Below, one piece after another: positions 11,181-46,306 of a stretch of DNA of 64,000 nt. The DNA is from Dehalococcoidia bacterium (GTDB lineage: Bacteria; Chloroflexota; Dehalococcoidia; DSTF01; RBG-16-68-14): NCBI GenBank assembly GCA_040902195.1, contig JBBDXS010000003.1:108752-172751 (forward strand), in the 5' to 3' direction. The notes beneath the pieces are model-generated. The model did no database searches. It was given only the letters and a program-made list of their open reading frames with translations, and was not told the origin of the DNA. The position numbers were made by a program, and so were the translations under genes. Position 1 is the stretch's first letter; the number at the start of each line of letters is the position of its first letter.

Positions 11181-11257
11181 GTCCCCGTAGCTCAACCGGA
11201 TAGAGCAGCGGACTTCTAATCCGCAGGTTGCAGGTTCGAGTCCTGCCGGGGACGCCA
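11181..11257 (+). tRNA. tRNA-Arg (anticodon TCT); integration target (attL)
   Basis: gtccccg...cggggac acceptor, anticodon arm gcgga-CTTCTAA-tccgc, T-arm gcagg-ttcgagt-cctgc, encoded CCA. An integrase gene lies 190 bp downstream. Confidence 0.9.
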
Positions 11258-11445
11258 GACACCCAACTTCGTATCTGAAGTTGACGGAAGAGCACCCTCC
11301 GATGGCCCATCGCGCCACGCCGTGACCAGCGGATTCGTCCAGCGTTTCCGGACGGTCACAACCAATCCCCTCGTCGTTTGCCCGACCAGCACTGACTGCG
11401 AAAGGAGGCAGTGGAACAATGGTCGCACGACGGAGGTGGAATCAG

Positions 11446-12447
11446 GTGGACAAGTCATCGGTCACACTCGCACGGCTCAGAGAAGCTTACGCCGTGTACA
11501 ACCAAGTGGTGGGTAAGTCGCCCAGAACCATCCACTGGTACAACCAAAAGCTACAGCTTGTTGAGCGGTTCCTCGGGGAGGGCTGCGACCTGGGCGACTT
11601 CACACTGGAATCGGCGCGTGCATATATCGCCGACTTGCAGAACCGCCGGGTACGGTACCAGAACAACGGCTACGTGAAGGACAAGAGCGGCGCGTTGTCG
11701 AGCGCCTATATCCAGGGCTTTGCCCGCGCTCTGCGGGCGTTCTCAACATGGCTAAATCAGGAGGGCTATACCGAGACGAACGTCCTGCAGCCACTGAAGC
11801 CTCCTTGCATCCAGCGCAAGGTCGTCCAGCCACTGACGGACGAGGACGTCCGTCAGATTCTCGGACGCCTCGACCAGAACGACCCCTACGGAGCCCGTGC
11901 CTACGCGATGATCTGGACGCTGCTCGACACCGGCCTCAGGGCTTCCGAGCTCTGCGGCCTGCGCGTCGATAACACGCACATCGAGAAGCAGGGTTTCCTC
12001 AAGGTGCTCGGCAAGGGCAATAAAGAGCGGCTCGTGCCCATCGGAGCGCGCACGATGTCCGTTCTGCTCCGTTGGCGCGACGTGTTCAGGCCGATGTACG
12101 ACGAGCTAGACAGCCCTTACTTTTTCCTCGGCCGAGACGGCGGGCTGATGACCACGATGGCCCTCCAGGAAGTCGTAAAGCGCGCCGGCCGGAACGCGGG
12201 CGTCCCACGCCTGCACTGCCACTTGCTCCGGCACACCTTTGCAACGAACTACCTAGTCATGGAAGTCGGCGACCCGCTCCGGCTCCAGCAGATCCTGGGC
12301 CACACGTCGCTGGAAATGGTCCGGCACTACGTGGCGATGGCCAGCATAGAGCAGAGCTTGTTAGAGAAAAGGCCTTCGCCAATGGATTTGTTCGATAGAG
12401 CCCGGCCTTCCGACAGAACCGCCTACCTCGGAAGAACTCTCAAGTAG
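11446..12447 (+). CDS. Tyrosine-type site-specific recombinase/integrase (XerC/D-like)
   Basis: N-terminal SAM-like core-binding domain (AYAVYNQVVGKSPRTIHWY). Catalytic domain with LDTGLRASEL, HLLRHTFAT and LGHTSLEMVRHY (R..HxxR..Y). Start set to the GTG at 11446 by homology with the paralog, whose equivalent upstream ATG frame is stopped. Confidence 0.9.
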   Translation: MDKSSVTLARLREAYAVYNQVVGKSPRTIHWYNQKLQLVERFLGEGCDLGDFTLESARAYIADLQNRRVRYQNNGYVKDKSGALSSAYIQGFARALRAFSTWLNQEGYTETNVLQPLKPPCIQRKVVQPLTDEDVRQILGRLDQNDPYGARAYAMIWTLLDTGLRASELCGLRVDNTHIEKQGFLKVLGKGNKERLVPIGARTMSVLLRWRDVFRPMYDELDSPYFFLGRDGGLMTTMALQEVVKRAGRNAGVPRLHCHLLRHTFATNYLVMEVGDPLRLQQILGHTSLEMVRHYVAMASIEQSLLEKRPSPMDLFDRARPSDRTAYLGRTLK

Positions 12448-13565
12448 AATTCTTTGGAACGCCCGTAGTCATCGCACAATGCCCTGTCGACATGGTGGCC
12501 CCTAAACGGGCCTATGCTCCAAGCCGCAACGTCGCTTATCCATGCGGTCAGCTCCAAGGGGTCAACCAGGGCCATTCGCGGCTGATATCTTGCAGCAAGC
12601 TGCCTGGCTGATCGGGAGAACTTGGACGTCGTGACCATTACGCCGTAGTCGGCATTCTGATCGATCACGGTAAACATGAATTCTTTCAACTGAGAGAGCC
12701 TGACCGGTTCGGAGCGATGTCGCTTGCATTCCACGAACGTGACAATTGGTAGCTCCGAACCTCTCTGGATCACAATTACATCTTTGCCGTCATCCCAACT
12801 GGCCGGCGTCAGAACGACGTCGTAGCCCAAGCTTCGAAGCAAGGAGGCCACGAGCGCCTCGAACTTGCGGGGGTTGGTCTCCGGTAAGTGGTCAGGCCGG
12901 CGTGACAGATACCTGACTACTTCGGGCTGAATTAGAGTCTCACTATCCGCGAGCGACTTAACAAGTGCCGCGTCTGATTGAATGCTAGCTGTGTCGTCCC
13001 AAACCAATTGAATGTCCTGCGTCTTCAACATGGTCGTCAACCAGCAGTAGGAAAAGCGGAAGATATCATAGTCCGAAAGATCTGGCGCTCTTATGAATGC
13101 CGTGCCACACGATCTTGTAGACGGGTCCCCGAACATGATCGCGTCGAGGTCAAGTTCTATCGTACGTTTACGTACATCAACGAGCGAAGGAAGGCCGTCG
13201 CTAAGGTCTTCGCTATCAGCTGTTCTATAGTCCAATTCAAATGCTGCCTGTCGCATTCGTTCCCAGTCGTCAGAGCAGTCCTTTTCCTCTGGGCCGGTCA
13301 CCTCGAGGGTTAGAACATAAGGGGGCTTGCTTCTCGCTGACTCTTGGTCGGGAAACAGAAGAACGTCATCCCAGAAGTAGCGCAGGCTCAGTTCGTCTTC
13401 GACCGAGGGCCATGGCTGGCCAGGAGTCCGAACCAGTCGCCATAGAGCGACGGATCGGAGCCGCTTCGCCCTCCGCCACCAGGGGCGACCAGGACTCTCT
13501 CGCGCCGCCGTAAAGTCGAGACGACGAGATTGGCCGCGCAATAGCCGCCCAGGGAGGGGTTTCAT
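12423..13565 (-). CDS. Mrr-type restriction endonuclease domain protein with a large unknown N-terminal domain
   Basis: C-terminal FEALVASLLRSLGYDVVLTPASWDDGKDVIVIQ...VTFVECKRH...YGVMVTTSKFS matches the Mrr_cat PD-(D/E)xK core. GGAGGA Shine-Dalgarno sequence 5 nt upstream of the ATG. The 3' end overlaps the integrase 3' end by 25 nt. Confidence 0.7.
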   Translation of the reverse strand: MKPLPGRLLRGQSRRLDFTAARESPGRPWWRRAKRLRSVALWRLVRTPGQPWPSVEDELSLRYFWDDVLLFPDQESARSKPPYVLTLEVTGPEEKDCSDDWERMRQAAFELDYRTADSEDLSDGLPSLVDVRKRTIELDLDAIMFGDPSTRSCGTAFIRAPDLSDYDIFRFSYCWLTTMLKTQDIQLVWDDTASIQSDAALVKSLADSETLIQPEVVRYLSRRPDHLPETNPRKFEALVASLLRSLGYDVVLTPASWDDGKDVIVIQRGSELPIVTFVECKRHRSEPVRLSQLKEFMFTVIDQNADYGVMVTTSKFSRSARQLAARYQPRMALVDPLELTAWISDVAAWSIGPFRGHHVDRALCDDYGRSKEFYLRVLPR

Positions 13566-19294: not shown

Positions 19295-19501
19295 TCAACC
19301 TCTTCGGCCCTTGTAGGGATCCCTGCTTCGCAATTCGGCATCCCTCAGGTATTCCATGACGGCCTTCCGCGTCGTGACCCAGTTGCGTCCGATCTTCCGG
19401 GCTCTCAGCTTGCCCTGTCGAGCCAGGAGACCAAGGTGCTTAAGACTGAGCCCACTAGCGGCCGCCGCCTCGGAGAGCGAGATGAGCTCCTCGCGGTCCA
19501 A
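19295..19501 (-). CDS. Excisionase-family / MerR-like HTH DNA-binding protein
   Basis: LISLSEAAAASGLSLKHLGLLARQGKLRARKIGRNWVTTRKAVMEYL fits the excisionase-family HTH pattern (..E.A..lg.s...l......G.l.a.kiGr.w.......eyl). Confidence 0.65.
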   Translation of the reverse strand: MDREELISLSEAAAASGLSLKHLGLLARQGKLRARKIGRNWVTTRKAVMEYLRDAELRSRDPYKGRRG

Positions 19502-19717: not shown

Positions 19718-19747
19718 TTGCCGACCCCGTACCAAGTAATGTAAGAT
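19718..19747 (+). promoter_or_regulatory. Candidate promoter of the 19776-24303 operon
   Basis: TTGCCG (19718-19723), 18-nt spacer, TAAGAT (19742-19747). GTAAG/CTTAC inverted repeats overlap the -10 element. AGGAGG RBS lies before the ATG at 19776. Confidence 0.35.
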
Positions 19748-19775
19748 ATCCTTACCACCAGTAAGGAGGGCCGAG

Positions 19776-20084
19776 ATGGCCGCGCCAAGTGCCAATTCCG
19801 TCTGCGAAGAACTTCTCATCATCCATCGGGAGTTCCAGGAGACCCTCGGGGAGGCCCACAATAGCCTCTCCGACGGCTGCCGACCACTCAATGACCTACC
19901 CGGCTTCGATAGCACACTCATCCCTTTGGTCATCCGGACATTGGCCCGACGCCTCGGCATCACGCTCCCTCCGAAGGCAAAGATTACCAATCTCTACATC
20001 TCCAACGACGGGCGCCAGCGGCTTACGGTGCGCGAGATCGCAGATGGCTTCTGCAGGAAGTACGGAGGATACTTTAGTGGCTGA
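19776..20084 (+). CDS. Carrier-protein-like small protein (ACP/PCP-like, tentative)
   Basis: NDLPGFDSTLIPLVIRTLARRLGITLP resembles the carrier-protein helix-II motif G-x-D-S-x(13-15)-G-I-x-L-P, with Ser46 at the expected position after an N-terminal helix. Strong RBS. Confidence 0.4.
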   Translation: MAAPSANSVCEELLIIHREFQETLGEAHNSLSDGCRPLNDLPGFDSTLIPLVIRTLARRLGITLPPKAKITNLYISNDGRQRLTVREIADGFCRKYGGYFSG

Positions 20085-20424
20085 TCGAGAAGAGACGCGG
20101 AAGATAATCGCATCGAGGATCCGCGAGGCCCGTCGCTTGGCCGGCCTGAGCCAGGCACAGGCTGCTGGCATTCTCGGTATCCACCGTCCTTCGCTGAGTC
20201 AAGCGGAGGCCGGTCGGCGCAATTTAACGGCCGATGAACTCACACGCCTGGCTCAAGCTTACGACGTTACAGTTTCTTGGCTGGCAGGAAGCGATACTGA
20301 AACACTGAATCCTCATGATGACCGCATACAGCTCGCAGCGCGTGAGCTTAGCAAGCTCCGCCCGGAGGATGTACAGAGGCTGCTGTCCCTACTATCCGCG
20401 ATGAGACAAGAAACTCCGTCATGA
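20077..20424 (+). CDS. XRE-family HTH transcriptional regulator
   Basis: IREARRLAGLSQAQAAGILGIHRPSLSQAEAGRRNLTADELTRLAQAYDVTVSWL is an HTH_3 motif. The GTG at 20077 is preceded by GGAGGA and overlaps the upstream gene by 8 nt. Confidence 0.8.
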   Translation: MADREETRKIIASRIREARRLAGLSQAQAAGILGIHRPSLSQAEAGRRNLTADELTRLAQAYDVTVSWLAGSDTETLNPHDDRIQLAARELSKLRPEDVQRLLSLLSAMRQETPS

Positions 20425-21275
20425 CCTATCGAAGATCATTCGATGCTCTAAGAGCCATTGAGCTGGCAGCGGAAGTGCGTGATGACGCAGGCCTCGACTT
20501 CGTCTCTCCGATTTCGATCTTCGACCTCTGCGAGGTTCTAAACGTCTCTGTCCGTTTCATCGATACCAAGAGTGCCGAGGCCATCTACTGCGCCGGACCA
20601 GGCCTGGCTCCAACGATCATTGTCTCGGCACTCCGCCCGCCTCAACGTCGATTCTTCAATTGCGCACACGAACTCGGCCACCATTTCCTCGAGCACGGCT
20701 TCACCGTTGACGAGTTCCAATCAGGTGCTACCCAACCCACGAACGAGCTCCTCGCAGATACTTTCGCTGCACATCTGCTCATGCCGCGGCTCGGCCTAGC
20801 AAACGCATTTGTGGTCCGAGGTTGGGACATCAAAGAGCCAACGCCCTTTCAGCTACTGGTTGTGGCATCGCACTTCGCCATTGGTATGGACACCTTGATA
20901 ACTCATCTCGAACGAGGCCTCAACCTCCTTACTTCGCCGCAAGCTGATCGCCTCCGCAAAGTCCGGCTCCCCGTTCTACGCGCGGAAATTCTCGATAGAG
21001 CAGAAGCTGCCCGCCTCGTGGTCGTCGACAAGGATTACTCGCTCCCCTCCGTGGACGTCGACGTTGGCGACTTGATTTTGGCCGCACCTGGTAACGCGAC
21101 TTGCAATGGTCCGTCAATCAGGCACGAAGGCAGCTGCAATACGGGTTCGATCTTCCGAGCGATTGCCCCCGGCACTTCCGACATTGCCTCATCTGTCCAT
21201 GGCTTGCCATTGATCGCCCGGGTATCGAGAAAGCCATACATCGGCCTCGCGAAGTATCGGTTCTTGGAGGAATAG
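20421..21275 (+). CDS. ImmA/IrrE-family zinc metallopeptidase
   Basis: HEXXH motif in FNCAHELGHHFLEH plus the downstream ADTFAAHLLMP. ATGA overlap with the XRE gene. This is the classic XRE-ImmA pair. Confidence 0.8.
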   Translation: MTYRRSFDALRAIELAAEVRDDAGLDFVSPISIFDLCEVLNVSVRFIDTKSAEAIYCAGPGLAPTIIVSALRPPQRRFFNCAHELGHHFLEHGFTVDEFQSGATQPTNELLADTFAAHLLMPRLGLANAFVVRGWDIKEPTPFQLLVVASHFAIGMDTLITHLERGLNLLTSPQADRLRKVRLPVLRAEILDRAEAARLVVVDKDYSLPSVDVDVGDLILAAPGNATCNGPSIRHEGSCNTGSIFRAIAPGTSDIASSVHGLPLIARVSRKPYIGLAKYRFLEE

Positions 21276-21279
21276 TGCA

Positions 21280-22089
21280 ATGGCTGCTATAGAAGGTACC
21301 TTCTTTCACGCGACTGGCGGCAACCTATCTGTGGCCTGGAGTCGAGCAGTCACCGAAACTCGGAAGCGAACTCGTAGAGAAGTCAGTCCCCTGCTCTTCT
21401 CATTCGGTGGCCTGGACCAGGAGGCACCTGAAGAGCTTGCTGCGATTCGCACGCTCCTAGACGAGTGCCTCGGCCAGTCAGACATGCAAAGCGTGCAAAC
21501 GGTCGCGAATACCATCTTTCCTCAGGGCATCTGGCAGTTTCACAGAAACGATCGCCATGCTTTTTTCAACGCTTACCTGGACAGCCTGCCTGACTATGTC
21601 GGCATGGCACCCTCCAAGAACAGCCGTGGTCTCTACTTCGCACGGTTGATCGCCTACGGCATTGATCCTAGGACCGGGCGTGGCGACCTCACACATTTAA
21701 ACCAGTTGGAGTTCATTATTCAGCACTGTAACCGCGGCGTGCGACGCTCAATGTTTCAGGCAGCTCTCTTCGATCCCTCCCGCGACCAGACGGCCAGCGC
21801 GCAGCTGGGATTCCCTTGCCTACAGCACGTGACGTTCGTACCAGATTTCCACTCGCAAGCTCTAACGACCAACGCCTTCTACGCCACTCAGCAGCTCTAT
21901 GAGCGGGCCTATGGCAACCTCCTCGGCTTGGCTCGTCTCACCAAGTTCATGGCAAAAGAAACCGACCTTCGACCAGCAGAAGTTAACTGTTATGTAGCTA
22001 TCGAGAAAATGGATAGAAGGCTCAAGACTGGCCGCGCGCTCGATCGCTTGCTTGGCGCCGTCGAAGAAGCAGCCTCCTCGGAGAAATGA
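21280..22089 (+). CDS. Thymidylate synthase-fold (ThyA / dNMP hydroxymethylase-like) protein
   Basis: GFPCLQHVTFVP...LTTNAFYATQQLYERAYGNLLGLARLTKFMAKETDLRPAEVNCYV aligns by eye with ThyA LPPCHAFFQFYV...[45 protein letters not shown]. The catalytic Cys is conserved. Confidence 0.55.
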   Translation: MAAIEGTFFHATGGNLSVAWSRAVTETRKRTRREVSPLLFSFGGLDQEAPEELAAIRTLLDECLGQSDMQSVQTVANTIFPQGIWQFHRNDRHAFFNAYLDSLPDYVGMAPSKNSRGLYFARLIAYGIDPRTGRGDLTHLNQLEFIIQHCNRGVRRSMFQAALFDPSRDQTASAQLGFPCLQHVTFVPDFHSQALTTNAFYATQQLYERAYGNLLGLARLTKFMAKETDLRPAEVNCYVAIEKMDRRLKTGRALDRLLGAVEEAASSEK

Positions 22090-22090
22090 C

Positions 22091-22510
22091 ATGGAAATAG
22101 TTGGCCACGGACTAGATATCGTCGAACTGTCGAGGATCGACCACTTGGAAAAGGAGCATGGCGGCGATTTCCTGCTTGGTTGGTTTACGGAGCATGAGAT
22201 CTCGCATGCTCCGCCAGTAAATCGAGGCGCCTACTTCGCAGGTCAAATCGCGGCCAAGGAGGCCATAGTCAAGGCAATCGGAACTGGCCTAGTTGGCGAA
22301 ATGGCATGGACCGAGATAGAGGTCAACAGGGCGCAATCTGGCGGGCCGCTCGTCGTTCTCACGGGTTCGGTCCTAGAGATGGCTATAGCCCACGGCGTGG
22401 AGAGCTGCCTATTGACGATCAGCCACGGCGGTAACATGGCGATCGCAAGCGCACTCGCGCTCGGAAGGCACCGGGGGCCACGAGGCCGCTCGTTGCCCGA
22501 TGGCCATTGA
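22091..22510 (+). CDS. acpS: Holo-ACP synthase-type 4'-phosphopantetheinyl transferase
   Basis: MEIVGHGLDIVELSRI...FAGQIAAKEAIVKAIGTG...WTEIEV...GGPLVVLTG...LTISHGGNMAIASALAL aligns along the full length of E. coli AcpS. The start lies 1 nt after the upstream stop. Confidence 0.8.
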   Translation: MEIVGHGLDIVELSRIDHLEKEHGGDFLLGWFTEHEISHAPPVNRGAYFAGQIAAKEAIVKAIGTGLVGEMAWTEIEVNRAQSGGPLVVLTGSVLEMAIAHGVESCLLTISHGGNMAIASALALGRHRGPRGRSLPDGH

Positions 22511-22537
22511 CCAGTTCTGCTGTGTAGCCTAGGTTAG

Positions 22538-23290
22538 GTGAAGAGCCAGATGAGCACTTCCACAATGCAGTCTCCAGCCGAGCCCGACAACGGGGCCATA
22601 GACGTTGGACCTGGCTTTCTAACCAGGGTAGAGATCGAGAAGCATTGGACACGGCTCTTTCCATCCACCGAAGACTCAGACGTGCCTCCCCCTCTTGGTC
22701 GACTTAAGCCCGCGTCGGTCGACTTACACCTGGGCGCCGAGTACTTCGTGACTTCCGAAAGGGCTCCGCGGCGGCTGTCGCAGCAGGATGACTACGTCAA
22801 GATCCCGCACGGTGAGTTTGCTCTTCTCACGACTCATGAGGTCGTAAGCGTCCCCAGCAACGTTCTCGCGCTGATAAGTACGCGAGTTAAACTAAAGCGG
22901 ACCGGACTGATTAACATTTCTGGATTTCACGTTGATCCAGGCTTCACCGGTCAAATTTTCTTCTCGGTCTACAACGCCGGTCCTACGGATCTGATGTTGA
23001 AATGGAAGGAGCGAGCTTTCACGATTTTCTTCGCTTCGCTAATAGGGCCTACGATCCCTTACGATGGCCAGTACCAGAACCAGCGAGGCCTGCCGCCAGA
23101 CCTTGTATCGGGACTCGGCGGTCCTCCGCTTAACCTCGTCAAGCTTGACCAGCGGATAGACAACCTCGAGGCTCGGTTCATTTCGAGGCTCGGCCTATAT
23201 GGCGGCCTCGCCTCCGTAGTCTTCTCCGTCCTTCTAGTTCTACTGGGCACAGGCGTGGGTGCGGGCCTGCAGTGGTTTTTCACGCGATGA
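22538..23290 (+). CDS. dCTP deaminase/dUTPase-fold protein with C-terminal coiled segment and TM anchor
   Basis: ASVDLHLG, FALLTTHEVVSVPSNVLALISTRVKLKRTGL and FHVDPGFTGQIFFSVYN parallel Dcd VDVRLG, GRSSLARLGL and RIDPGWSGCIVLEFYN. The C-terminus LYGGLASVVFSVLLVLLGTGVGAGL is a TM helix. Confidence 0.7.
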   Translation: MKSQMSTSTMQSPAEPDNGAIDVGPGFLTRVEIEKHWTRLFPSTEDSDVPPPLGRLKPASVDLHLGAEYFVTSERAPRRLSQQDDYVKIPHGEFALLTTHEVVSVPSNVLALISTRVKLKRTGLINISGFHVDPGFTGQIFFSVYNAGPTDLMLKWKERAFTIFFASLIGPTIPYDGQYQNQRGLPPDLVSGLGGPPLNLVKLDQRIDNLEARFISRLGLYGGLASVVFSVLLVLLGTGVGAGLQWFFTR

Positions 23291-24303
23291 CCTCAAACGC
23301 CCCGCCTCTGCGCCTCCTGCGGATCGAACTGCTGCGCGGATGTCCATTGACATGTGTGCACTGCTCCGCCGAGGCAGGCCCGGGAAGACGTGAAGCAATG
23401 AGGCTGGAGCAGGTCATCGGCCTGCTTTCGGACGCCCGCGAGCTAGGAGCCGACCGTGTGATCTTTACAGGCGGCGAACCGTTGGAATTTTTGGAACTCG
23501 AGGAGTGCCTAGGGTTTGCGCGCAAACTAGGGTTGGACGCGACACTATTCACCACTGGCATATCCAGACGTTCAGGGACTCCCGGAGTTGACCGCGCGTT
23601 CCTGGCGGCGATTCAGCCCTTGACTAATAGTTTTGTACTTTCGCTCTATTCACACAGGCCGGAAGTGCATGATCGAGTAACCGCTAACCGAGGAAGCTGG
23701 AGCCAGACAATGGAAGCGGCTCTACATCTCGCGCAGCTTGGTTCCTCTGTGCACTTCACCTTCCTGCCTCTGACGCAAAACTACAGCGATCTCATGGAAG
23801 TGGCTCGTCTTGCCCGAACGGTTGGCGCGGTTGAGCTTAGAATCATCAAGCTGGTCGCTCAGGGGCGAGCGGCCCGAAACTCACAGCTCACCACGCCTGC
23901 GCCTGCGGCCGTGGCCTTGTCGATAGCTGAGGCCAAACGGGTGGCGTACCCAACGAGGATTCGCGTCGGCGGTGCTGCAGCATTGTATGGCTTCGATACG
24001 GCTTGTGAAGCACCAGTCGGCGAGCTATTCGTGGGCGTGGACGGCTGGATTAGCCCGTGTCCGGCGCACTCACCTGCAGAAGCCGACCCCGACTCGAACT
24101 GCTTCAACGTTGGCCTCCAGCGCGTATGGGAGCACTCGCGAATCCTACGTGAAGTCCGCCGAGCACAAGCGAACGGTTTCCGTTGCGCAGATAGTTGCGT
24201 TGCACGAAGCGCCTTAACGCCACATCCCGACAAATCTCCTTCCAACAGTTTGCTGAGAGGCGCCGCGTTCAGCACTAGGTCCCCGCAGTGGCACGATTCC
24301 TGA
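23287..24303 (+). CDS. Radical SAM protein (possible SPASM/twitch-type C-terminus)
   Basis: CX3CX2C cluster motif in LLRGCPLTCVHCSAE, FTGGEPL, and C-terminal extra cysteines (DTACEAP...WISPCPA...CADSC). The ATG at 23287 overlaps the upstream stop (ATGA). Confidence 0.8.
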   Translation: MTSNAPPLRLLRIELLRGCPLTCVHCSAEAGPGRREAMRLEQVIGLLSDARELGADRVIFTGGEPLEFLELEECLGFARKLGLDATLFTTGISRRSGTPGVDRAFLAAIQPLTNSFVLSLYSHRPEVHDRVTANRGSWSQTMEAALHLAQLGSSVHFTFLPLTQNYSDLMEVARLARTVGAVELRIIKLVAQGRAARNSQLTTPAPAAVALSIAEAKRVAYPTRIRVGGAAALYGFDTACEAPVGELFVGVDGWISPCPAHSPAEADPDSNCFNVGLQRVWEHSRILREVRRAQANGFRCADSCVARSALTPHPDKSPSNSLLRGAAFSTRSPQWHDS

Positions 24304-24922
24304 GCGCGTCCGTCATACCTGTCTGAAACTCGCGCTTCCGGCCTCGCGCCGGATGTCGAACCGCGTCATGCTCTAGCCCAATCGTCCGCAACGCGTCCTC
24401 AGCACGACGACCAACAGCGATCAATCGCGATTCCGGAAACATCTCCATGAGCGCTTCCAACCACGGCGTCCCAATGCTCACCTCGTGAACCTTAACCGGC
24501 GCATTCGCTTCATTCCCGTTGTTGACCGGGTGAAATGGGACCGCGTTCCAAGTTAGGGGCATGGCCTCATCTTTGAGTATTTCGCTCAAGCAAGACCACA
24601 GCGCCGTCGCCGTTGCTTCTCTCCAAAACGTCGCTGACGAGCATGCGTCGTAACCAGATGACGATCCGAACGCCCTCCAGGGATCGCCCCAGTCATCCAG
24701 CAGGATTGAGAGCGAGCAAAATGCGACACCCGAAGTTGCAGCTCCACGGTAACCGGGCGCCTCGCCGACCAGGAGAAAACGGCTAACCTTCGGATCCTTT
24801 GTAGAAAGAAACCGCTCCAGATTGCGAGCGGCCGTTGGGCAATCATAGGGATTGCGAAAGCCGATCGGCAGATCTGCATCCACCAGAGACGCGACGAATT
24901 GCTTGATGGAACGTCGCATCAC
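24275..24922 (-). CDS. Uracil-DNA glycosylase superfamily protein (family 4/5-like)
   Basis: LLVGEAPGYRGAATSGVAF resembles UDG motif A (GEAPG...G.PF). C-terminal AVRHPARG resembles motif B (HPS). Convergent with the radical SAM gene and overlaps it by 29 nt. Confidence 0.55.
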   Translation of the reverse strand: MMRRSIKQFVASLVDADLPIGFRNPYDCPTAARNLERFLSTKDPKVSRFLLVGEAPGYRGAATSGVAFCSLSILLDDWGDPWRAFGSSSGYDACSSATFWREATATALWSCLSEILKDEAMPLTWNAVPFHPVNNGNEANAPVKVHEVSIGTPWLEALMEMFPESRLIAVGRRAEDALRTIGLEHDAVRHPARGRKREFQTGMTDALRNRATAGT

Positions 24923-25135: not shown

Positions 25136-26200
25136 CTACGGAACCGCTGTCGATTCGCCCGCTGGAGAAGGCTCTGGAATTCCCAACGGAGTAGCTGCCG
25201 CTTGACCAGGCGTTGACGTAGCTTTCGTCGACGGCGAAGGCGTCGCATCAACAGCCTGGCACTGCGAAGCACTCGAGCCAACGGACAATAGTGCCACGCT
25301 CTGGACTCGTTTGAAGCCTGGATCAGAGAAGAACACTTCCACGTGGTATCCGCATTCTCCGCCACTTAACTGGGCACCGCAGACTTCCATCGTTCGGTCC
25401 AATTTGCCGGGCTCTCCCTGGAGGCTCCCCAAAAACTGGACGGTCTGACCGGAAGTTCCAAGAGCGATGGCGTACGCGTCCATACCGTCTGGAATGCTGT
25501 TTCTCGGAACTCCAACCGTCACACAGGTTCCTTGATCGTCAAAGGGCGTCGCAGACGCAGCAGGCACTTCGGTCGCGGTATTTTCGGGTGTTGAACCATC
25601 GCTCTGACCTGGATCGTCTGCCCTGCCCACCCCTTCTGGCGTTCCCTCAGCCGGATTCGTGGAGTGTTGTTGCCCTGGCGTCGGCATTTTGCCAGCCTCT
25701 GGCTGGTGAATACCGGCGCTGTAAAACGCTACCGCAATGGCAATTCCTGAGCCCGCTAGAGCCAGACCCGCGATGACAATTGCAGCACATGCCTTCCTCC
25801 TGGCCCCGTCCAATGACGCATTCATAGACGTTTCTGCCGCACTGGTTCGCGAACGCGTAACCACGAGGCACACAGCGACGAGAAGCGGAGGTGTTGCTAC
25901 GAAATTCAACGCCGCTAGGGCGACAGTTGCTTGGATCGGCGGTGGTAGCCATACCCCCAGGACAACGAGGCCACCAGTCGGCGCGAAAACTGCCACCAAA
26001 GCTAGCGTACGCCCAAGCCAAGAAAGCCTTTGACCTAAACGCGAAAGGATTGCGACGAGCTTTTCGCTTCGGAGAACTAGACGGGCACCTTCATATACGG
26101 CGCCTTGAACAAGCTCCCATATTGTTTCCTTGCCCTCAACTGATTCGTCACAGGTGGTCAACCGTAAGGCTCCCCCACCTCCTAGTGGCGCTCGCGCCAA
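25136..26200 (-). CDS. Membrane protein with low-complexity extracellular region, unknown function
   Basis: Several TM helices (LALVAVFAPTGGLVVLGVWL, LLVAVCLVV, AAIVIAGLALAGSGIAIAVAF), then a Pro/Thr/Gly-rich linker and a Cys-containing C-terminal domain. Confidence 0.4.
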   Translation of the reverse strand: MARAPLGGGGALRLTTCDESVEGKETIWELVQGAVYEGARLVLRSEKLVAILSRLGQRLSWLGRTLALVAVFAPTGGLVVLGVWLPPPIQATVALAALNFVATPPLLVAVCLVVTRSRTSAAETSMNASLDGARRKACAAIVIAGLALAGSGIAIAVAFYSAGIHQPEAGKMPTPGQQHSTNPAEGTPEGVGRADDPGQSDGSTPENTATEVPAASATPFDDQGTCVTVGVPRNSIPDGMDAYAIALGTSGQTVQFLGSLQGEPGKLDRTMEVCGAQLSGGECGYHVEVFFSDPGFKRVQSVALLSVGSSASQCQAVDATPSPSTKATSTPGQAAATPLGIPEPSPAGESTAVP

Positions 26201-31701: not shown

Positions 31702-32451
31702 ATGAAAGACTTGGTTGTTCGACGACGTAATCGGCTCAAACATCACTACACGCTCGTCTCAAACGTCCTGCTCTTCGGCTACCGAGACCTGACCGATGCC
31801 GAGAAGCTGACGTATGCGGCCATCGACAGCTTCGACTGGCCCGATGAGAAAGGGGAGAGGAAGGGCTACGCCTACCCGTCCGTCGAGACGCTGGCTGACA
31901 GACGTGGCGTGGATCGACGCACCGTTTTCCGACACATGAGCTCCCTTGAAAGTGTCGGCTTGCTCAAGCGAGAGGTTCGGCCGGGGAGACCGAACTTGCT
32001 CTGGATCGAAGAGCCGTCGGAAGAGGAGTCAGAGAAGTACTTATCCACAGTTTCTATGGGGCGTGACACGGATGTCACGGGTGGGGGTGACACAGATGTC
32101 ACACCTTACAAGAAAGAAGAAGGAGAAAAAAACAAAACCGTTAACGGAGAGCACAGCTCTTTGAGGAGAAGGAAGCGACTATCGGCTGAACAGCTTGCCA
32201 AGAGAGAGTGGCTAGCAGGGGAGATGCTTAAGGTCCTCAAAGACGAGCACAGCCTCGGCTTCTATCGGCTAGTCGCGGCGACCGTACCTGAGCACCGAGT
32301 ATTTGGAGCACTTAGCGAGGTGAAGTTAGCTATCGCTGAGCGACGCATAAGAACCACCAGCGGCGCACTCTTCGTATCCTTGATCCGGCTCCACAACGGG
32401 AGGTCGTGGGACAATCTCGGCGCAAAGCGAGTCCGGGATCAGCCGCGGTGA
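31702..32451 (+). CDS. Winged-HTH protein, replication-initiator-like
   Basis: NVLLFGYRDLTDAEKLTYAAIDSFDW...YPSVETLADRRGVDRRTVFRHMSSLESVGLLKR is the pattern seen in plasmid/phage helix-turn-helix replication or DnaD-like proteins. Confidence 0.5.
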   Translation: MKDLVVRRRNRLKHHYTLVSNVLLFGYRDLTDAEKLTYAAIDSFDWPDEKGERKGYAYPSVETLADRRGVDRRTVFRHMSSLESVGLLKREVRPGRPNLLWIEEPSEEESEKYLSTVSMGRDTDVTGGGDTDVTPYKKEEGEKNKTVNGEHSSLRRRKRLSAEQLAKREWLAGEMLKVLKDEHSLGFYRLVAATVPEHRVFGALSEVKLAIAERRIRTTSGALFVSLIRLHNGRSWDNLGAKRVRDQPR

Positions 32452-33749
32452 CGGTATCCTAAGTAGCTGAGTTTCCCAGGCACCTTCAGCGACTCAATAA
32501 AGTCGAGCATTCGTGCCCGAGTCTCGCTCAGTTCAGACTCAACCGAGGGGAAACGCGCTGCAAGAAACCCATAGAGAAGGGCCGCGGCACGAGTCGCATA
32601 GATATTTGGATGCATTCCCTTGGAGAAGCCATACCCTCCACTGGCGTCTTGCTCCTCCTGAAGAAACTGAACGAGCGGTGCTGGCGGTCTGCTCTCCGCC
32701 ACCATGTCATTCAGCGCTCCCAACATTCGAGCTACGTCATACCACGCCTGCGTGTCGAGTATGTTCGCCGCAGATCCGCCAGGTTTCGCAGGACAAGCCT
32801 GCTTTGCGTTCTTGCTCACATTCTGGAAGGACGCCAAGATCCCCTGTTTGGTGGAGGCAAAACCGTTAAGATCTGCTTCCAAGAAGAAGGGCAAATGCGG
32901 GCTAATCAGGTGGCGAGTGGCCCTTCCATCGGCCAGAGCATCAAGCTCGTGGTCCATCTTTGGAACGTACCTTGCCACAACAAAGGTATCGCCTTCACTC
33001 CTCATGATACTCGTACAGTTCTTGATTTCCCATTCAGCCAAACGTTTGAGATCCGTGCGCGAGACCGGCTGCTCCAAGTCATCTAGAATAGTAACGCCGG
33101 CGTCCGTGGTCACCGTACCAACGGGATACTCGCCCGGCATTTCCATAAACGCTCCGCTATCGTCGCGGCAGCTCCGAGTGAAGTCACACCAAGCATCTAC
33201 TTTGCGCTTACCGCCCAGTAAATCCTTCGCTCGCCCAGCGCCAAGCTTTTCATGTGCTCCCTCGTCATCGTAGTGGATCCCAGCCGCGACAATTAGTATT
33301 GAGCGGGCAGCCCACCCTCCAAACATCATGGGAGGTTGGCGCAAAGACGGCCGAAATGCGCCGTTAGTTTCATCCCAGTGCCGCCGCACGACATCAACGA
33401 GTTTGCCGGCGCTGCAACCTCCAGGGAGGTCAGAGTCCAACACTTGCGAGGCCTGCAAGGCCAGCGCGGTAGCGCCCATCGTGTCGGATTCGACCCATTC
33501 TCGCATCAGCGTCAGAAATCGCTTCGTTGCGGCGGGCGTTTGGTCTGCGTCCGGCAATACAAGAGTTCGCTCTAGAGAGTCAATTTCGGAAGCCACCCTC
33601 CACTTGCCTTTGGAATCTGCAAAAAGCTCTTCGTCCTGGCGGGCGCGCTGTTGATTGGCCAAGCGACGCAGGCAAAGGACGATGGTGAAGACGGCCAGGA
33701 TCAGTAGCCAGGCAGCTGAGAGCAGTCCGAAGACCGTTAGGCTATCCAT
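32439..33749 (-). CDS. Membrane-anchored protein, possible alpha/alpha-toroid (prenyltransferase/terpene cyclase-like) repeats
   Basis: N-terminal TM helix. DASGGYGFSKGMHPNIYATRAAALLYGFL and DDSGAFMEMPGE resemble the G-G-(F/Y)-G...Y.T repeat of that fold. Weak call. Confidence 0.35.
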   Translation of the reverse strand: MDSLTVFGLLSAAWLLILAVFTIVLCLRRLANQQRARQDEELFADSKGKWRVASEIDSLERTLVLPDADQTPAATKRFLTLMREWVESDTMGATALALQASQVLDSDLPGGCSAGKLVDVVRRHWDETNGAFRPSLRQPPMMFGGWAARSILIVAAGIHYDDEGAHEKLGAGRAKDLLGGKRKVDAWCDFTRSCRDDSGAFMEMPGEYPVGTVTTDAGVTILDDLEQPVSRTDLKRLAEWEIKNCTSIMRSEGDTFVVARYVPKMDHELDALADGRATRHLISPHLPFFLEADLNGFASTKQGILASFQNVSKNAKQACPAKPGGSAANILDTQAWYDVARMLGALNDMVAESRPPAPLVQFLQEEQDASGGYGFSKGMHPNIYATRAAALLYGFLAARFPSVESELSETRARMLDFIESLKVPGKLSYLGYRHRG

Positions 33750-35286: not shown

Positions 35287-36528
35287 CTAGGCAGCAAAAC
35301 GCGTGAGCACCAAACAAGCATTTTGGCCGCCGAAACCGAAGCTGTTCTTCAACACGACACGAACGGGCAAGGATCTGGCCTTGTTCGGGACGTAATCGAG
35401 GTCACACTGCGGATCCGGCTTTTCGAAATTGATCGTCGGCGGGACGACGTCGCTCTTTAAAGCCATCACAGCGGCAATGGTTTCGATTGCTCCTGTCGCG
35501 CCTAGCGCGTGACCCATCATAGACTTCAGAGATGATATTGGAACACGCGCAGCGCGCTCCCCGAACGCCGATTTGATCGCTCTAGTTTCGGCCACATCAT
35601 TATGGGGAGTGGAGGTACCATGGGCGCTGATGTAATCGACATCTGCTGCGTCAATACTAGCGTCTCCCAGTGCGTGCTCAATGCATCTGGCAGCCTCCGT
35701 TCCGTTTCGTTCGGGGATAACTAAGTGGTGTGCATCGCACGTTTGAGCATAGCCCGAAATCTCGGCGAGAATCGGGGCGCCGCGCGACAGCGCGTGTTCG
35801 AGTTCCTCGATTGCCAGCATGGCCGCTCCTTCAGCGAGCACAAACCCATCGCGACCAGAATCAAACGGCCGGCTTGCGCGCTCAGGCTGGCCATTTCTTG
35901 TGGACAGTGCACGGAGAAGGCAGAACCCGATCATGCCGGAGAATGTCACTCCAGCTTCGGTGCCGCCGGCCAGGACAACGTCCGCTTCGTCATGCCGAAT
36001 GAGACGCACTGCTTCACCAATCGCTTGGGTCGAGGAGACACATGCGGCAACTAAGGTCATGACCGGCCCTTTTGCGCCGGTCAGGATTGCTAGGTTGGAG
36101 GCTGCCGCATCGGGTAATAACTTGAGCAAAGCGAGTCGGTCACTTGTATCCCAGACCTTGTCAATGAATATCTGTGGGTAATTCCCTATGACGCCAAGAC
36201 CACCTCCGCCATTGCCTAGCACGATGCCTAGCCGTTCAGGTTGAACTGCACCTATTGCACCTGAATGATGCAGGGCTTCGTTCGCCGAGGCGATCGCGAA
36301 CTGCGTGAATCGGTCCGTTCGCCCGATCAACTTTTCGCTCATATGGCGCTGCGGCTGGAAGCCTCGCACTTCGCCAGCAATCCGACTAGGTAAATTGGAT
36401 GCGTCGAAGGCAGCTATCTGTCGAACAGCAGAACGCCCGGCGACGCATGATGCCCAAAACGCATCCACGTCGCACCCGAGGGGAGATATGACACCCATTC
36501 CCGTGATTACTACTCGTCGCCTGGTCAT
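35287..36528 (-). CDS. fabF: Beta-ketoacyl-ACP synthase II
   Basis: RRVVITGMGVISPLG. Active-site ACVSSTQAIGEA (Cys), ISAHGTSTPHND (His) and MMGHALGATGAIE (His). C-terminal NSFGFGGQNA. Confidence 0.9.
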   Translation of the reverse strand: MTRRRVVITGMGVISPLGCDVDAFWASCVAGRSAVRQIAAFDASNLPSRIAGEVRGFQPQRHMSEKLIGRTDRFTQFAIASANEALHHSGAIGAVQPERLGIVLGNGGGGLGVIGNYPQIFIDKVWDTSDRLALLKLLPDAAASNLAILTGAKGPVMTLVAACVSSTQAIGEAVRLIRHDEADVVLAGGTEAGVTFSGMIGFCLLRALSTRNGQPERASRPFDSGRDGFVLAEGAAMLAIEELEHALSRGAPILAEISGYAQTCDAHHLVIPERNGTEAARCIEHALGDASIDAADVDYISAHGTSTPHNDVAETRAIKSAFGERAARVPISSLKSMMGHALGATGAIETIAAVMALKSDVVPPTINFEKPDPQCDLDYVPNKARSLPVRVVLKNSFGFGGQNACLVLTRFAA

Positions 36529-42058: not shown

Positions 42059-42103
42059 CTTCTAATCCGCAGGTTGCAGGTTCGAGTCCTGCCGGGGACG
42101 CCA
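42059..42103 (+). repeat. Direct repeat of the tRNA-Arg(UCU) 3' 45 nt (attR of element 1 / attL of element 2)
   Basis: cttctaatccgcaggttgcaggttcgagtcctgccggggacgcca is identical to 11213-11257. The base before it differs from the tRNA, so the 5' half is absent. Confidence 0.85.
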
Positions 42104-42291
42104 GACACTCAATTTCGTATCTGAAATTGACGGAACGCCGCCCTCCGAAGGCTCTTCGCGTGGCTCGATGACCAGCGGATTCGTCCAGCGTTTCCGTGCG
42201 GTCAAAACCAGTCCCCTCGTCGTTTGCCCGACCAGCACTGACTGCGAAAGGAGGCAGTGGAACAATGGTCGCACGACGGAGGTGGTAGCAC

Positions 42292-43329
42292 GTGTACAAG
42301 TCAGTGGTCACGCTGGAACGGCTCAAAGAGGCCTACGCGGTCTACAACCAAGTGGTAGGCAAGTCGCCCAGGACCATCCAGTGGTACAACCAGAAGCTCG
42401 AGCTCTTCGAGCGCTTCCTGGGCGACGGCTGCGAGCTAGCTGATTTCACGCTGGAGTCGGCCCGGGCCTACATCGCAGACCTGCAGAACCGGCGGGCCAG
42501 GTACGAGCGAAACGGGTACGTCAAGGACAAGAGCGGCACGTTGTCGAGCGCCTACATCCAGGGCTTCGCGCGCGCATTGCGGGCGTTCTCGACCTGGCTC
42601 AACCAGGAGGGCTACACCGACACCAACGTCCTACAGCCGCTCAAGCCGCCGCGCATCCAGCGCAAGGTGATCCAGCCGCTCACAGACGAGGAGGTCGGAC
42701 GCATCCTCGGACGGCTTAAGCAGAACGACCCCTATGCTGCCCGCGCTTACGCCATGATCTGGACGTTGCTCGACACCGGCCTCAGGGCCTCCGAGCTCTG
42801 TGGCCTCCGCGTCGAAGACATGCACATCGAGAAGCAGGGGTTCCTGAAAGTGTTAGGCAAGGGCAACAAGGAGCGTCTCGTGCCGATCGGCACGCGGACG
42901 ATGTCGGTCTTGCTCCGCTGGCGCGACGTGTTTCGGCCGATGTACGACGAGCTGGACAGCCCCTACCTCTTCCTGGCCCGGGAGGGCCGGTCACTGACGA
43001 CGACCGCCCTACAGGAGGTGGTCAAGCGTGCTGGTAGGAATTCAGGCGTCCCGCGCGTGCACTGCCACCTCCTCCGCCACACGTTCGCAACGAACTGCTT
43101 GGTGAAGGAAGTAGGGGACCCGCTCCGCCTGCAACAGATTTTAGGACACGAAACTCTTGAGATGGTTCGCCACTACGTGGCCATGGCTAGCGTCGAGCAG
43201 AGCCTGCTGGAGAGGCGAGCGTCACCAATGGACTTGTTCGCAAAAACCATGCCGGGGCGTGACGAACGCGCACGACCACCTGAACTTGCCGGAACAGAAG
43301 CCAATGCTGGTGCAGCTGCCCCAACGTGA
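42292..43329 (+). CDS. Tyrosine-type site-specific recombinase/integrase (paralog of 11446-12447)
   Basis: Collinear with integrase 1 (TLERLKEAYAVYNQVVGKSPRTIQWY...LDTGLRASEL...HLLRHTFATN...LGHETLEMVRHY). The ~190-bp upstream leader is also conserved. Confidence 0.9.
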   Translation: MYKSVVTLERLKEAYAVYNQVVGKSPRTIQWYNQKLELFERFLGDGCELADFTLESARAYIADLQNRRARYERNGYVKDKSGTLSSAYIQGFARALRAFSTWLNQEGYTDTNVLQPLKPPRIQRKVIQPLTDEEVGRILGRLKQNDPYAARAYAMIWTLLDTGLRASELCGLRVEDMHIEKQGFLKVLGKGNKERLVPIGTRTMSVLLRWRDVFRPMYDELDSPYLFLAREGRSLTTTALQEVVKRAGRNSGVPRVHCHLLRHTFATNCLVKEVGDPLRLQQILGHETLEMVRHYVAMASVEQSLLERRASPMDLFAKTMPGRDERARPPELAGTEANAGAAAPT

Positions 43330-46193: not shown

Positions 46194-46219
46194 GGGTTCG
46201 AGTCCTGCCGAGGACGCCA
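46194..46219 (+). repeat. Third, shorter copy of the tRNA-Arg(UCU) 3' end (attR of element 2)
   Basis: gggttcgagtcctgccgaggacgcca versus the tRNA aggttcgagtcctgccggggacgcca (one internal mismatch). GC content rises immediately to its right. Confidence 0.7.
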
Positions 46220-46306
46220 GACTCCCCCTCGGTCCGCACCCCGCTACGCCTGGGCCCCATTCGCGCCGATACTACCTCTGGGCGTAGCTTCGCCCTGTGA
46301 GGCCTC

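Follow-up and report, generated by a model that had tools for sequence, protein, structure and literature searches.

Questions raised by the locus

What might an enzyme with the fold of thymidylate synthase (TS, ThyA) be doing in one operon with a candidate acyl carrier protein (ACP), a phosphopantetheinyl transferase (PPTase) and a repressor/peptidase switch? The question is raised by an eight-gene cluster at positions 19776-24922 of a 64-kb stretch of DNA from a Dehalococcoidia metagenome-assembled genome, hereafter called the window. We know of no chemistry that explains a ThyA-fold enzyme joined to a carrier protein and a PPTase. As set out below, the cluster is a rare variant of a large, widespread and unstudied family of switchable operons, and we propose as a plausible though still tentative reading that it forms an inducible defense against phages or other invading DNA that is based on a uracil nucleotide modified at C5.

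A translationally coupled operon

The cluster begins on the forward strand with the gene of a carrier-like protein (19776-20084; 102 aa), which is preceded by what reads in the sequence as a strong ribosome-binding site (AAGGAGG). An 8-nt overlap joins it to the GTG-started gene of a repressor of the XRE family with a helix-turn-helix (HTH) domain (20077-20424, forward; 115 aa), which in turn shares an ATGA overlap with the gene of an ImmA/IrrE-type zinc metallopeptidase (20421-21275, forward; 284 aa). The ThyA-like gene (21280-22089, forward; 269 aa) follows after a gap of 4 nt, the gene of an AcpS-type PPTase (22091-22510, forward; 139 aa) after 1 nt and a dUTPase/Dcd-fold gene (22538-23290, forward; 250 aa, or 241 aa when started at 22565) after 27 nt. 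The latter has an ATGA overlap with the gene of a radical S-adenosylmethionine (SAM) enzyme (23287-24303, forward; 338 aa), and a convergent gene encoding a protein with the fold of uracil-DNA glycosylases (UDGs; 24275-24922, reverse; 215 aa, or 214 aa when started at 24919) overlaps the 3' end of the radical SAM gene by 29 nt.

All eight genes are found in a six-frame list of open reading frames (ORFs) at the coordinates given by a first-pass annotation of this DNA, and an independent public gene call of the same DNA contains the same genes with 22565 and 24919 as the starts of the Dcd-fold and UDG-fold genes, respectively. The coupled operon with these overlaps that the first-pass annotation had claimed is therefore borne out, and the cluster is a real, translationally coupled operon carried by a mobile element.

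A widespread family with a conserved head

The first-pass annotation had also put the cluster forward as a candidate novel system. This stands in so far as neither a PADLOC v2 system model nor a description in the literature searched covers it, but the cluster is no isolated case: Homologs of the ThyA-like protein form 1765 protein clusters, and a scan of one genome per species returned 420 loci, corresponding to ca. 0.2% of species genomes. We determined the synteny of the best 80 of these 420 loci using hidden Markov model (HMM) searches of the neighboring genes. Homologs of the carrier, XRE and ImmA genes are present at 72, 72 and 74 of these loci, always in the order carrier-XRE-ImmA-ThyA-like, and the carrier gene lies directly 5' of the XRE gene in 72 of the 80. 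This four-gene head is found across Planctomycetota, Acidobacteriota, Myxococcota, Cyanobacteria, Pseudomonadota, Actinomycetota and Chloroflexota, so that the synteny anticipated for these genes is seen well beyond the window, while all eight genes together recur in a second contig (locus L083; see below).

Downstream of the head, 75 of the best 80 loci encode a protein with the HMUDK_hel domain (the helical domain of 5-hydroxymethyldeoxyuridine [5-hmdU] kinase), in some cases fused to a dTMP-kinase domain, and 68 encode MazG and MazG_C proteins; DUF1643 is present in 13. A PPTase homolog is encoded within ca. 4 kb of the ThyA-like gene at 49 of the 80 loci, on either strand and often on the opposite one. 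The common form of the family thus comprises the head together with an HMUDK_hel protein, MazG/MazG_C and usually an AcpS-type PPTase. The window form instead carries a dUTPase-like, membrane-anchored protein, a radical SAM enzyme predicted to be of the twitch type and a convergent gene for a SMUG-like glycosylase in place of this tail. Dcd-fold homologs are found at 6 of the 80 common-form loci, and none of the best 80 carries radical SAM or UDG genes of the window type.

When the eight window proteins and those of the common form were compared with PADLOC v2, only regulators (capH/capP and RmrA) and a weak N-terminal pVip match were returned and no system, in line with the first-pass remark that no named system of this composition was known. 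The matches in PHROGs were confined to generic families (repressor, metalloprotease, dCTP deaminase and radical SAM). In the searchable literature we found no description of an ACP-XRE-ImmA-TS-like operon, though an earlier computational mention may exist. Relatives of the ThyA-like protein were not detected in the 2.9 million viral contigs and 50,697 phage genomes searched, and a search of E. coli genomes likewise gave no relatives. Twenty-two plasmids carry a relative, and 13 of these plasmids are conjugative. At least 420 species-level genomes have this conserved and switchable operon, which PADLOC v2 does not contain.

Two kinds of locus in this family deserve mention on their own. On plasmid pSfreNXT3a of S. 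fredii (locus L090), which has the common form, the annotation lists a second thymidylate synthase gene (351 aa) a few genes away from the system's ThyA-like gene, and a divergent gene for a Dcd-fold protein with transmembrane (TM) segment, an AAA ATPase and an "ABC-three component system" gene lie nearby (L090 1569-4053 and 9441-12663). At three distant loci (L087 3512-5085, L088 6994-8824 and L091 8554-11707), the ImmA homolog includes a chagasin-like region (Inhibitor_I42), and the next gene encodes a C1 peptidase of the papain family. The presence of both in these variants, though not in the window, hints at a relay of protease, inhibitor and protease.

Recurrence of the window form in divergent lineages

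Could the radical SAM, Dcd-fold and UDG-fold genes of the window have come to lie beside the head by chance, on a mosaic mobile element and with no function in common? The island is indeed a mosaic of two tandem elements (see below), and the radical SAM subfamily is very rare: Exhaustive HMMER searches at E<=1e-30 found it in 16 of 1.84 billion representatives, and a word-indexed search returned ca. 10 homologs. Yet the parts of the window form recur beside ThyA-like genes in about six other divergent lineages, at 27-68% identity and in differing arrangements. A related element on a second contig, L083, carries all eight genes with 58-73% identity. Locus L087 reads ACP-XRE-ImmA-C1 peptidase-ThyA-like (29% identical to that of the window)-Dcd (57%)-radical SAM (50%) with a convergent UDG gene (52%), while L088/L089 has the order UDG-ACP-ThyA-like (30%)-radical SAM (34%)-PPTase-XRE, followed by an insertion sequence (IS), ImmA, a C1 peptidase and, farther on, a dTMP kinase. 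L093/L094 combines carrier-XRE-ImmA-ThyA-like (41%)-radical SAM (35%) with a convergent UDG gene (54%), L096 has the ThyA-like and radical SAM genes, and L173 contains Dcd, an XRE-ImmA fusion, ThyA-like, UDG and radical SAM genes. Even the overlap of the convergent UDG gene with the radical SAM gene is shared by L083, L087 and L093.

Since the contexts of the radical SAM gene recur with ThyA-like genes, we regard the parts of the window form as functionally linked and not as chance neighbors. Translational coupling in the window and a head that is syntenic at nine-tenths of the loci (72 of 80) likewise contradict a chance co-location, to which we give next to no credence. It should be noted that of 80 loci from a metagenome scan with the radical SAM alignment only L093-L096 were informative, as the remainder were mostly generic radical SAM genes of at most 25% identity. 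The Dcd-fold and radical SAM genes are paired in five lineages. At two loci the overlapping pair is found alone, among housekeeping genes and unaccompanied by ThyA-like, XRE or ImmA genes (L085 7291-8978; L095 7095-8939), and the dUTPase-like protein and the radical SAM enzyme may be a functional unit of their own.

An in-operon switch with a conserved operator

Reading the sequence 5' of the carrier gene, we found a putative promoter on the forward strand (19718..19747) composed of a -35 box TTGCCG (19718-19723), an 18-nt spacer and a -10 box TAAGAT (19742-19747). It overlaps a candidate operator (19741..19765) formed by the palindrome GTAAG-ATATC-CTTAC (19741-19755) and a third half-site GTAAG (19761-19765), which overlaps both the -10 box and the ribosome-binding site of the carrier gene. 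With at most one mismatch allowed, 65 of 72 loci, drawn from many phyla, have the palindrome GTAAG-N5-CTTAC at a fixed distance 5' of the carrier gene, 56 of these 65 also have the third half-site, and the motif occurs only once in the whole window. In 37 of the 65 operator-bearing loci, TTGACA (with at most one mismatch) lies 10-30 nt 5' of the TAAGAT-containing palindrome and hence at a position compatible with a -35 box. A generic scan for sigma-70 promoters and terminators did not list the operon's promoter and gave no convincing terminators, and in this genome the promoter is thus a putative one, assigned by homology of position. The location of the operator upstream of the carrier gene makes the latter the first gene of the XRE-controlled operon.

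The XRE protein matches HTH_3 (1.7e-14) and the PADLOC capH model (1.3e-16 over residues 9-111 of 115) and is 50-64% identical to the XRE proteins of homologous loci; it would presumably bind the GTAAG-N5-CTTAC palindrome. Its partner matches Peptidase_M78 (1.7e-12, residues 37-153) with an HELGH motif of the HExxH type, and the PADLOC capP model (2.9e-15) across the peptidase domain only, i.e., at profile positions 6-116 of 242. The C-terminal 150 aa of this protein, in the part where CapP has its GAF domain and cysteine-switch loop, matched no family in profile searches, leaving its C-terminal half uncharacterized. The pair thereby resembles CapH/CapP, ImmR/ImmA and DdrO/IrrE in combining an XRE HTH protein with an M78 zinc peptidase carrying HExxH (each with the capH or capP model as its best PADLOC match), and an operator overlapping the promoter is a further feature shared with pairs of the CapH/CapP type. 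ImmA, IrrE and CapP cleave their XRE partners upon DNA damage or in response to single-stranded DNA (ssDNA) (bioRxiv 10.1101/2022.04.27.489752, 10.64898/2026.05.16.725639). By analogy, cleavage of the XRE repressor by the ImmA-type peptidase under such conditions might derepress the operon of the window.

The first-pass annotation had viewed the XRE/ImmA pair as a switch of the kind that controls the induction of prophages or integrative and conjugative elements (ICEs). This view had to be abandoned, as the pair accompanies the ThyA-like gene on plasmids and chromosomes as well as in ICEs; synteny in contexts that are not ICEs rules out a role as ICE master switch. Because the pair is inherited together with the ThyA-like gene and has its own conserved operator, the comparison of loci indicates that it regulates the system itself and does not serve to induce the mobile element.

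A divergent thymidylate synthase fold

The folds assigned in the first-pass annotation were all supported by profile or structure searches, with the exception of a deaminase label for the Dcd-fold protein (see below); in particular, the ThyA fold of the 269-aa protein was upheld by an AlphaFold2 model and the DCD family of the 250-aa protein by Pfam. For the ThyA-like protein, sequence profiles are of little help: No Pfam family matched at E<=0.1 (including PF00303), and TIGR03283 did so at 2.6e-9 with 36.9 bits, far below its cut-off of 174.55. The AlphaFold2 model, built on 35 homologs, has a predicted local distance difference test (pLDDT) score of 87.6 and a predicted template modeling (pTM) score of 0.89. 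Its top 50 matches in the Protein Data Bank (PDB) by Foldseek comprise thymidylate synthases, the CMP hydroxymethylase MilA and a phage dCMP hydroxylase, with E values of ca. 5e-8, a probability of 1.00 and template modeling scores of 0.45-0.55. The motif FPC180LQH is invariant in 35 ThyA-like sequences, and its Cys180 aligns with the catalytic Cys146 of ThyA. Asn213 corresponds to Asn177, the residue of ThyA that specifies uracil, and R155 aligns with R126/R127. On the level of sequence alignment only, the position of R166 is Thr in this subfamily, and the protein ends ahead of the GDTHLY segment of ThyA with its C-terminal His207 and Tyr209. Model and alignment together support the prediction of a thymidylate synthase-fold enzyme with a catalytic-type Cys180.

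Is this simply a thymidylate synthase, and the operon a stress-controlled cassette that supplies dTTP and excludes uracil during DNA repair or replication of the element? Each of the enzyme families has a textbook role in dTMP synthesis or uracil exclusion, IrrE/DdrO-type switches control DNA repair genes in Deinococcus, and the public annotation indeed names a thymidylate synthase, a holo-ACP synthase and a dCTP deaminase. However, PF00303 does not recognize the strongly divergent ThyA-like protein, in which the sugar-binding C-terminal segment of ThyA is missing, and the second annotated thymidylate synthase on pSfreNXT3a sits near the system's own ThyA-like gene. Such nucleotide housekeeping would also leave unexplained the carrier, the PPTase, the radical SAM enzyme, the HMUDK_hel protein, the C1 peptidase and the transmembrane anchor as well as the patchy distribution on mobile elements. 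We therefore consider it an unlikely explanation.

Dcd-fold, radical SAM and UDG-fold proteins

The Dcd-fold protein matches Pfam DCD (1.1e-15, 58.5 bits vs 27) and, below the cut-off, the dCTP deaminase model TIGR02274 (85.5 bits vs 92.8). Like E. coli Dut, neither the window protein nor any of its eight relatives has the catalytic Glu138 of E. coli Dcd in an alignment: The residue is Ser in the former and Ser or Ala in the latter, while the Asp of the VDPG motif is retained. This speaks against the dCTP deaminase label. Without the catalytic Glu, dCTP deamination or depletion is unlikely, and we have discarded the idea that the protein depletes dCTP by deamination. Like all of its relatives, the protein has a coiled coil and one transmembrane helix at its C terminus.

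The radical SAM enzyme matches PF04055 (3.9e-17, 63.4 bits) with a core motif CX3CX2C. Its invariant cysteines are C19, C23, C26, C240, C258, C300 and C304, the last four of which lie in the C-terminal part. This pattern makes it look like an enzyme of the twitch/SPASM-like type with auxiliary cluster, though PF13186 (SPASM) was recorded only for relatives of 34% identity and is absent from the matches of the window protein itself. The nearest solved proteins by sequence are SkfB (1.2e-6), PqqE and BlsE (4e-4). Two other identities were considered and dropped. As a viperin, the protein would be expected to match the pVip models beyond the residues 15-91 or 15-132 to which their matches (E 2.7e-7 and 1.1e-6) are confined, and the isomerase of phage M6, which resembles spore photoproduct lyase (SPL), belongs to a different class.

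The UDG-fold protein matches PF03167 narrowly (5.4e-6, 27 bits vs a gathering threshold of 24.3) and has the invariant motifs GEAPGYRG (motif A) and RHP (motif B). A sequence search against the PDB returned no match. With its AlphaFold2 model (pLDDT 95.7), Foldseek found SMUG1 proteins (Xenopus, human and Geobacter) and SMUG2 as best matches (TMq 0.58-0.67), followed by UdgX and family 4 enzymes. Judging from the model, the protein is thus closest in fold to SMUG1/SMUG2 (family 3 UDGs), at a sequence identity of 14-20%. This likeness is one of fold only, since motif A of SMUG1 is GMNPG with a catalytic Asn while the window protein has GEAPG as in family 4 and UdgX. SMUG1 removes uracil and 5-hydroxymethyluracil from DNA.

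The similarities to MilA and BlsE bring up another possibility, namely a diffusible small molecule of the nucleoside type, i.e., an antibiotic or signal that is built on the carrier as in the peptidyl-nucleoside pathways involving these two enzymes. MilA is a TS-fold hydroxymethylase to whose structure the ThyA-like protein shows one of its best matches, BlsE is a radical SAM decarboxylase and one of the few solved sequence matches, a carrier with its PPTase is a hallmark of tethered biosynthesis, and one component is membrane-anchored. However, the matches to BlsE span the generic radical SAM core only, the conserved set of genes is devoid of adenylation, condensation, ketosynthase, glycosyltransferase and exporter functions in what are very small clusters, and the association with TIR/Nmad2 and XRE/ImmA genes points to intracellular conflict. 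Altogether, a secreted nucleoside appears highly improbable to us.

The putative carrier protein and the PPTase

Neither the carrier protein of the window nor its close homologs match any Pfam family (PF00550 included). A profile of 32 homologs retrieved 29 PDB matches, 27 of which are acyl carrier proteins, each of them weak (E 0.05-1). In all 27, the serine of the DSL motif to which phosphopantetheine is attached aligns with Ser46 of the window protein. This residue is part of a GFDS motif and, like Pro37, invariant in the 32 homologs, while F44, D45 and L41 are at least 90% conserved. The protein at the equivalent position in a Streptomyces plasmid does match PF00550 (1.2e-7, 32.3 bits vs 20.8) and is annotated as "acyl carrier protein", the equivalent at L087 has a GLDSL motif, and those of other distant loci have GLDSL or DSL. 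These alignments support the view that the 102-aa product of the first gene is ACP-like.

The PPTase is a single-domain protein that agrees with the AcpS type in size (ca. 120-140 aa) and family models. It matches ACPS (2e-10), TIGR00556 (70.1 bits vs a cut-off of 45.35) and several holo-ACP synthase models down to 1e-24, and falls just short of the acpS equivalog TIGR00516 (59.0 vs 59.8).

The partnership of carrier and PPTase with the ThyA-fold enzyme has been kept across subfamilies that are only 27-30% identical and differ in gene order. Because it is invariant across such divergent subfamilies, we suggest that the C5 chemistry might be tied to the carrier thiol: A pyrimidine nucleotide would be modified at C5 while linked to the thiol of the carrier's phosphopantetheine, or by means of that thiol, and the radical SAM enzyme would then convert the product. 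As an example, the thiol could capture an exocyclic methylene intermediate and so give rise to a protein-tethered nucleotide, which the radical SAM enzyme may turn into an antiviral nucleotide or a DNA adduct. We consider this specific role of the carrier rather unlikely, if worth stating; if true, carrier-dependent nucleotide biosynthesis would be a new class in immunity.

A FabF-like beta-ketoacyl synthase is encoded elsewhere on the island (35287-36528, reverse strand) and matches both KS domains at about 1e-40. We dropped the idea that it uses this carrier, given that it lies 10 kb away and that no KS domain is found at any other locus of the family. Other genes of the island encode a weakly prenyltransferase-like protein (32439-33749, reverse) and a class I/II aminotransferase (43528-44697, reverse).

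An inducible defense based on a modified nucleotide?

For the preferred reading, an inducible defense, we envisage the following course of events, of which we infer the inducing signal, every chemical step and the role in defense itself. At rest, the XRE repressor would sit on the palindromic operator over the -10 box and keep expression of the operon low. A stress signal, which by analogy with CapP, ImmA and IrrE might be DNA damage or ssDNA arising during infection, would activate the ImmA/IrrE-type peptidase, and cleavage of the repressor would then release the whole operon. The membrane-anchored dUTPase-like protein might bind or hydrolyze a deoxypyrimidine triphosphate and so supply or sense a nucleotide. 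Cys180 of the ThyA-fold enzyme would attack C6 of a uracil nucleotide for a group derived from a one-carbon donor to be placed at C5, and the twitch-type radical SAM enzyme would transform this C5-modified nucleotide further. The PPTase would make the holo form of the carrier, which we conjecture to join the step of the ThyA-fold enzyme as a tether or thiol partner. Finally, the separately transcribed SMUG-like glycosylase might act on 5-substituted uracil in DNA, either excising the base from the replicating DNA of an invader, which would thereby be wrecked, or cleaning the DNA of the host.

The best precedent for such a defense is DS-4, an E. coli operon found by DefensePredictor that protects against phage infection and encodes a thymidylate synthase, an adenylate/dNMP kinase, an HMUDK_hel protein, a TIR protein and an Nmad2 protein (DeWeirdt, Mahoney and Laub, Science 2026; PMC13092281). 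In both cases a TS-fold enzyme is part of a small operon of nucleotide-modifying genes, which it heads in DS-4, and the P-x-R-D and PC motifs of the DS-4 enzyme align with the ThyA-like protein. The HMUDK_hel domain is common to DS-4 and the common form of the family, though not to the window. Unlike the window enzyme, the 361-aa TS of DS-4 matches PF00303. DS-4 lacks XRE/ImmA, carrier, PPTase, radical SAM, Dcd-fold and UDG genes, while the window lacks the kinase, HMUDK_hel, TIR and Nmad2 genes. Glycosylases of ca. 50% identity to that of the window sit in loci composed of ThsB_TIR, Nmad2, TIR, LD_cluster2 and MazG_C genes, and some loci of the family adjoin restriction, toxin-antitoxin, Gabija, DISARM or PARIS-type genes.

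Two of the loci that share the window's glycosylase family (L174 2214-8468 and L175 3009-8262) have the composition ThsB_TIR-Nmad2-TIR_2-LD_cluster2-MazG/MazG_C-UDG-(ThsB_TIR), with an HMUDK_hel gene near L174. In appearance both resemble the unvalidated system that the DefensePredictor supplement depicts as "MazG/MazG-C/NMAD/UDG".

Phages themselves offer the other obvious comparison. Their thymidine hypermodification proceeds via a dUMP hydroxymethylase, the 5-hmdU DNA kinase (5-HMUDK), aGPT-Pplase and a radical SAM isomerase or a pyridoxal phosphate (PLP)-dependent decarboxylase (Lee et al.; PMC5889632, PMC8989533). Shared features are a TS homolog whose site of action (in our family a predicted one) is C5 of a uracil nucleotide, the presence of auxiliary dNTP pyrophosphatases, radical SAM enzymes in some of the pathways and, in the common form of our family, the HMUDK_hel domain. 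By the same token, the operon could serve to hypermodify self-DNA, with thymine in the DNA of the element or host replaced or decorated through a 5-hydroxymethyl-dUMP-like route and hence protected from restriction, e.g., during transfer. Besides the combination of ThyA fold and radical SAM enzyme, which echoes the phage pathways (PMC8989533), the occurrence of a domain named after 5-hmdU DNA kinase in the common form and the carriage of the system by conjugative plasmids and ICEs speak for this idea. However, the window has neither the P-loop kinase 5-HMUDK nor aGPT-Pplase or any DNA kinase, and its radical SAM enzyme is twitch/SPASM-type in appearance and thus of another class than the SPL-like isomerase of phage M6. 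Conversely, the carrier protein and PPTase of the present family are foreign to the phage pathways, as is the predicted control by a cleavable repressor, under which a protective mark would not be expected; it should be constitutive. A SMUG-like glycosylase should excise uracil that is substituted at position 5, and the same element encodes a nuclease of the Mrr type, a family with some modification-dependent members. Hypermodification is phage-borne while the present family went undetected in the phage collections searched, which argues against phage-style self-modification. We consider a self-modification role improbable.

The first-pass annotation had left the choice between such self-marking and an inducible, toxic-nucleotide defense. 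We tentatively favor the latter because the family was not detected in the phage collections searched and because of the association with TIR and Nmad2 genes that are also found together in DS-4, the parts in common with DS-4 and the defense-gene neighbors. Prokaryotic viperins and dCTP deaminases of antiviral defense are comparable in that a radical SAM or Dcd-fold protein is found in a defense-like context and viral DNA synthesis is poisoned or starved. However, the matches of the pVip models do not extend beyond the N-terminal radical SAM core of the window protein, and the defense dCTP deaminases have a kinase fusion and the deaminase Glu, both of which are missing in the Dcd-fold protein.

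Several points weigh against an inducible defense and have to be kept in mind. TS, dUTPase-like proteins, MazG, dTMP kinase and UDG are also what cells ordinarily use to make dTTP and to exclude uracil. The Dcd-fold protein is devoid of the C-terminal motif-V arm of dUTPases and may not be catalytic. Around one-third of the complete common-form loci have no PPTase nearby, and, since to our knowledge no role of a carrier protein is documented in pyrimidine C5 chemistry, the carrier step is conjecture. On the side of regulation, the -35 and -10 boxes of the window are weak matches that the generic scan missed, and pairs of the CapH/CapP type are usually located upstream of their operon and divergent from it, whereas the pair of the window is co-oriented and coupled inside the operon, after the carrier gene. 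The link to DS-4 is one of shared parts, not orthology. Lastly, a PADLOC scan of 133 neighbor proteins turned up the genuine defense families GajB, DRT, mad3, HEC-01A, AriA and DrmB, but this is a count of families without a background from which we claim no enrichment.

Nucleotide modification by TS-fold and HMUDK-type proteins in genetic conflict is already known from DS-4 and phage hypermodification. New in comparison to known systems are the carrier protein, the PPTase, the radical SAM enzyme of the predicted twitch type and the switch within the operon. Should the system truly be a defense, it would add a principle based on modified pyrimidine nucleotides and would help to explain DS-4, which is validated yet mechanistically opaque. 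The conserved operator, the repressor/protease pair, Cys180 and Ser46 are immediate experimental handles, and pyrimidine-modifying enzymes together with a glycosylase that recognizes their product could serve for DNA labeling.

The mobile element and its surroundings

The first-pass annotation had placed the cluster on an integrative element. This is corrected here to two tandem elements at a tRNA gene. Together they form a low-GC island at tRNA-Arg(TCT) (11181-11264). Further copies of the 3' end of this tRNA gene lie at 42079-42110 and 46195-46226, with 97% and 94% identity, and a stretch of 300 nt covering the beginning of the integrase gene has a second copy at 42059-42358 (88%). The first element of ca. 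30.8 kb has its integrase at 11419-12447, the second of ca. 4 kb an integrase-sized ORF at 42292-43329, and a fall in GC content from ca. 0.68 to ca. 0.57 coincides with the borders of the tandem elements. With its integrase, an Mrr-type nuclease, a Replic_Relax protein and a TrwB-like coupling protein, the first element has the makings of an integrative mobilizable element, and we propose that the window module is part of its cargo.

Next to the integrase gene lies that of the Mrr_cat restriction-endonuclease-domain protein (12423-13565, reverse strand; 380 aa, 6.6e-22), which is likely a second defense cargo gene on the same element. Directly 5' of the system, a small excisionase/MerR-like HTH gene (67-68 aa, reverse strand) is found in the window (19295-19501) as well as at L083 (7851-8054) and L087 (2476-2679), so that the system occupies the same place just past this gene in all three. 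That these three related elements carry different variants of the system next to this gene suggests a hotspot for cargo in their family, which is characterized by a Replic_Relax protein and a TrwB-like coupling protein.

On the other side, 213 nt 5' of the glycosylase gene and in the same orientation, a further gene (25136-26200, reverse) encodes a protein of 354 aa with several hydrophobic segments and a C-terminal half rich in Pro, Thr and Ser. It has no Pfam match and is not conserved at related loci. At the left end of the window, far from the cluster, positions 344-656 contain a group of tRNA genes, tRNA-Val(CAC), tRNA-Leu(CAG) and tRNA-Arg(GCG).

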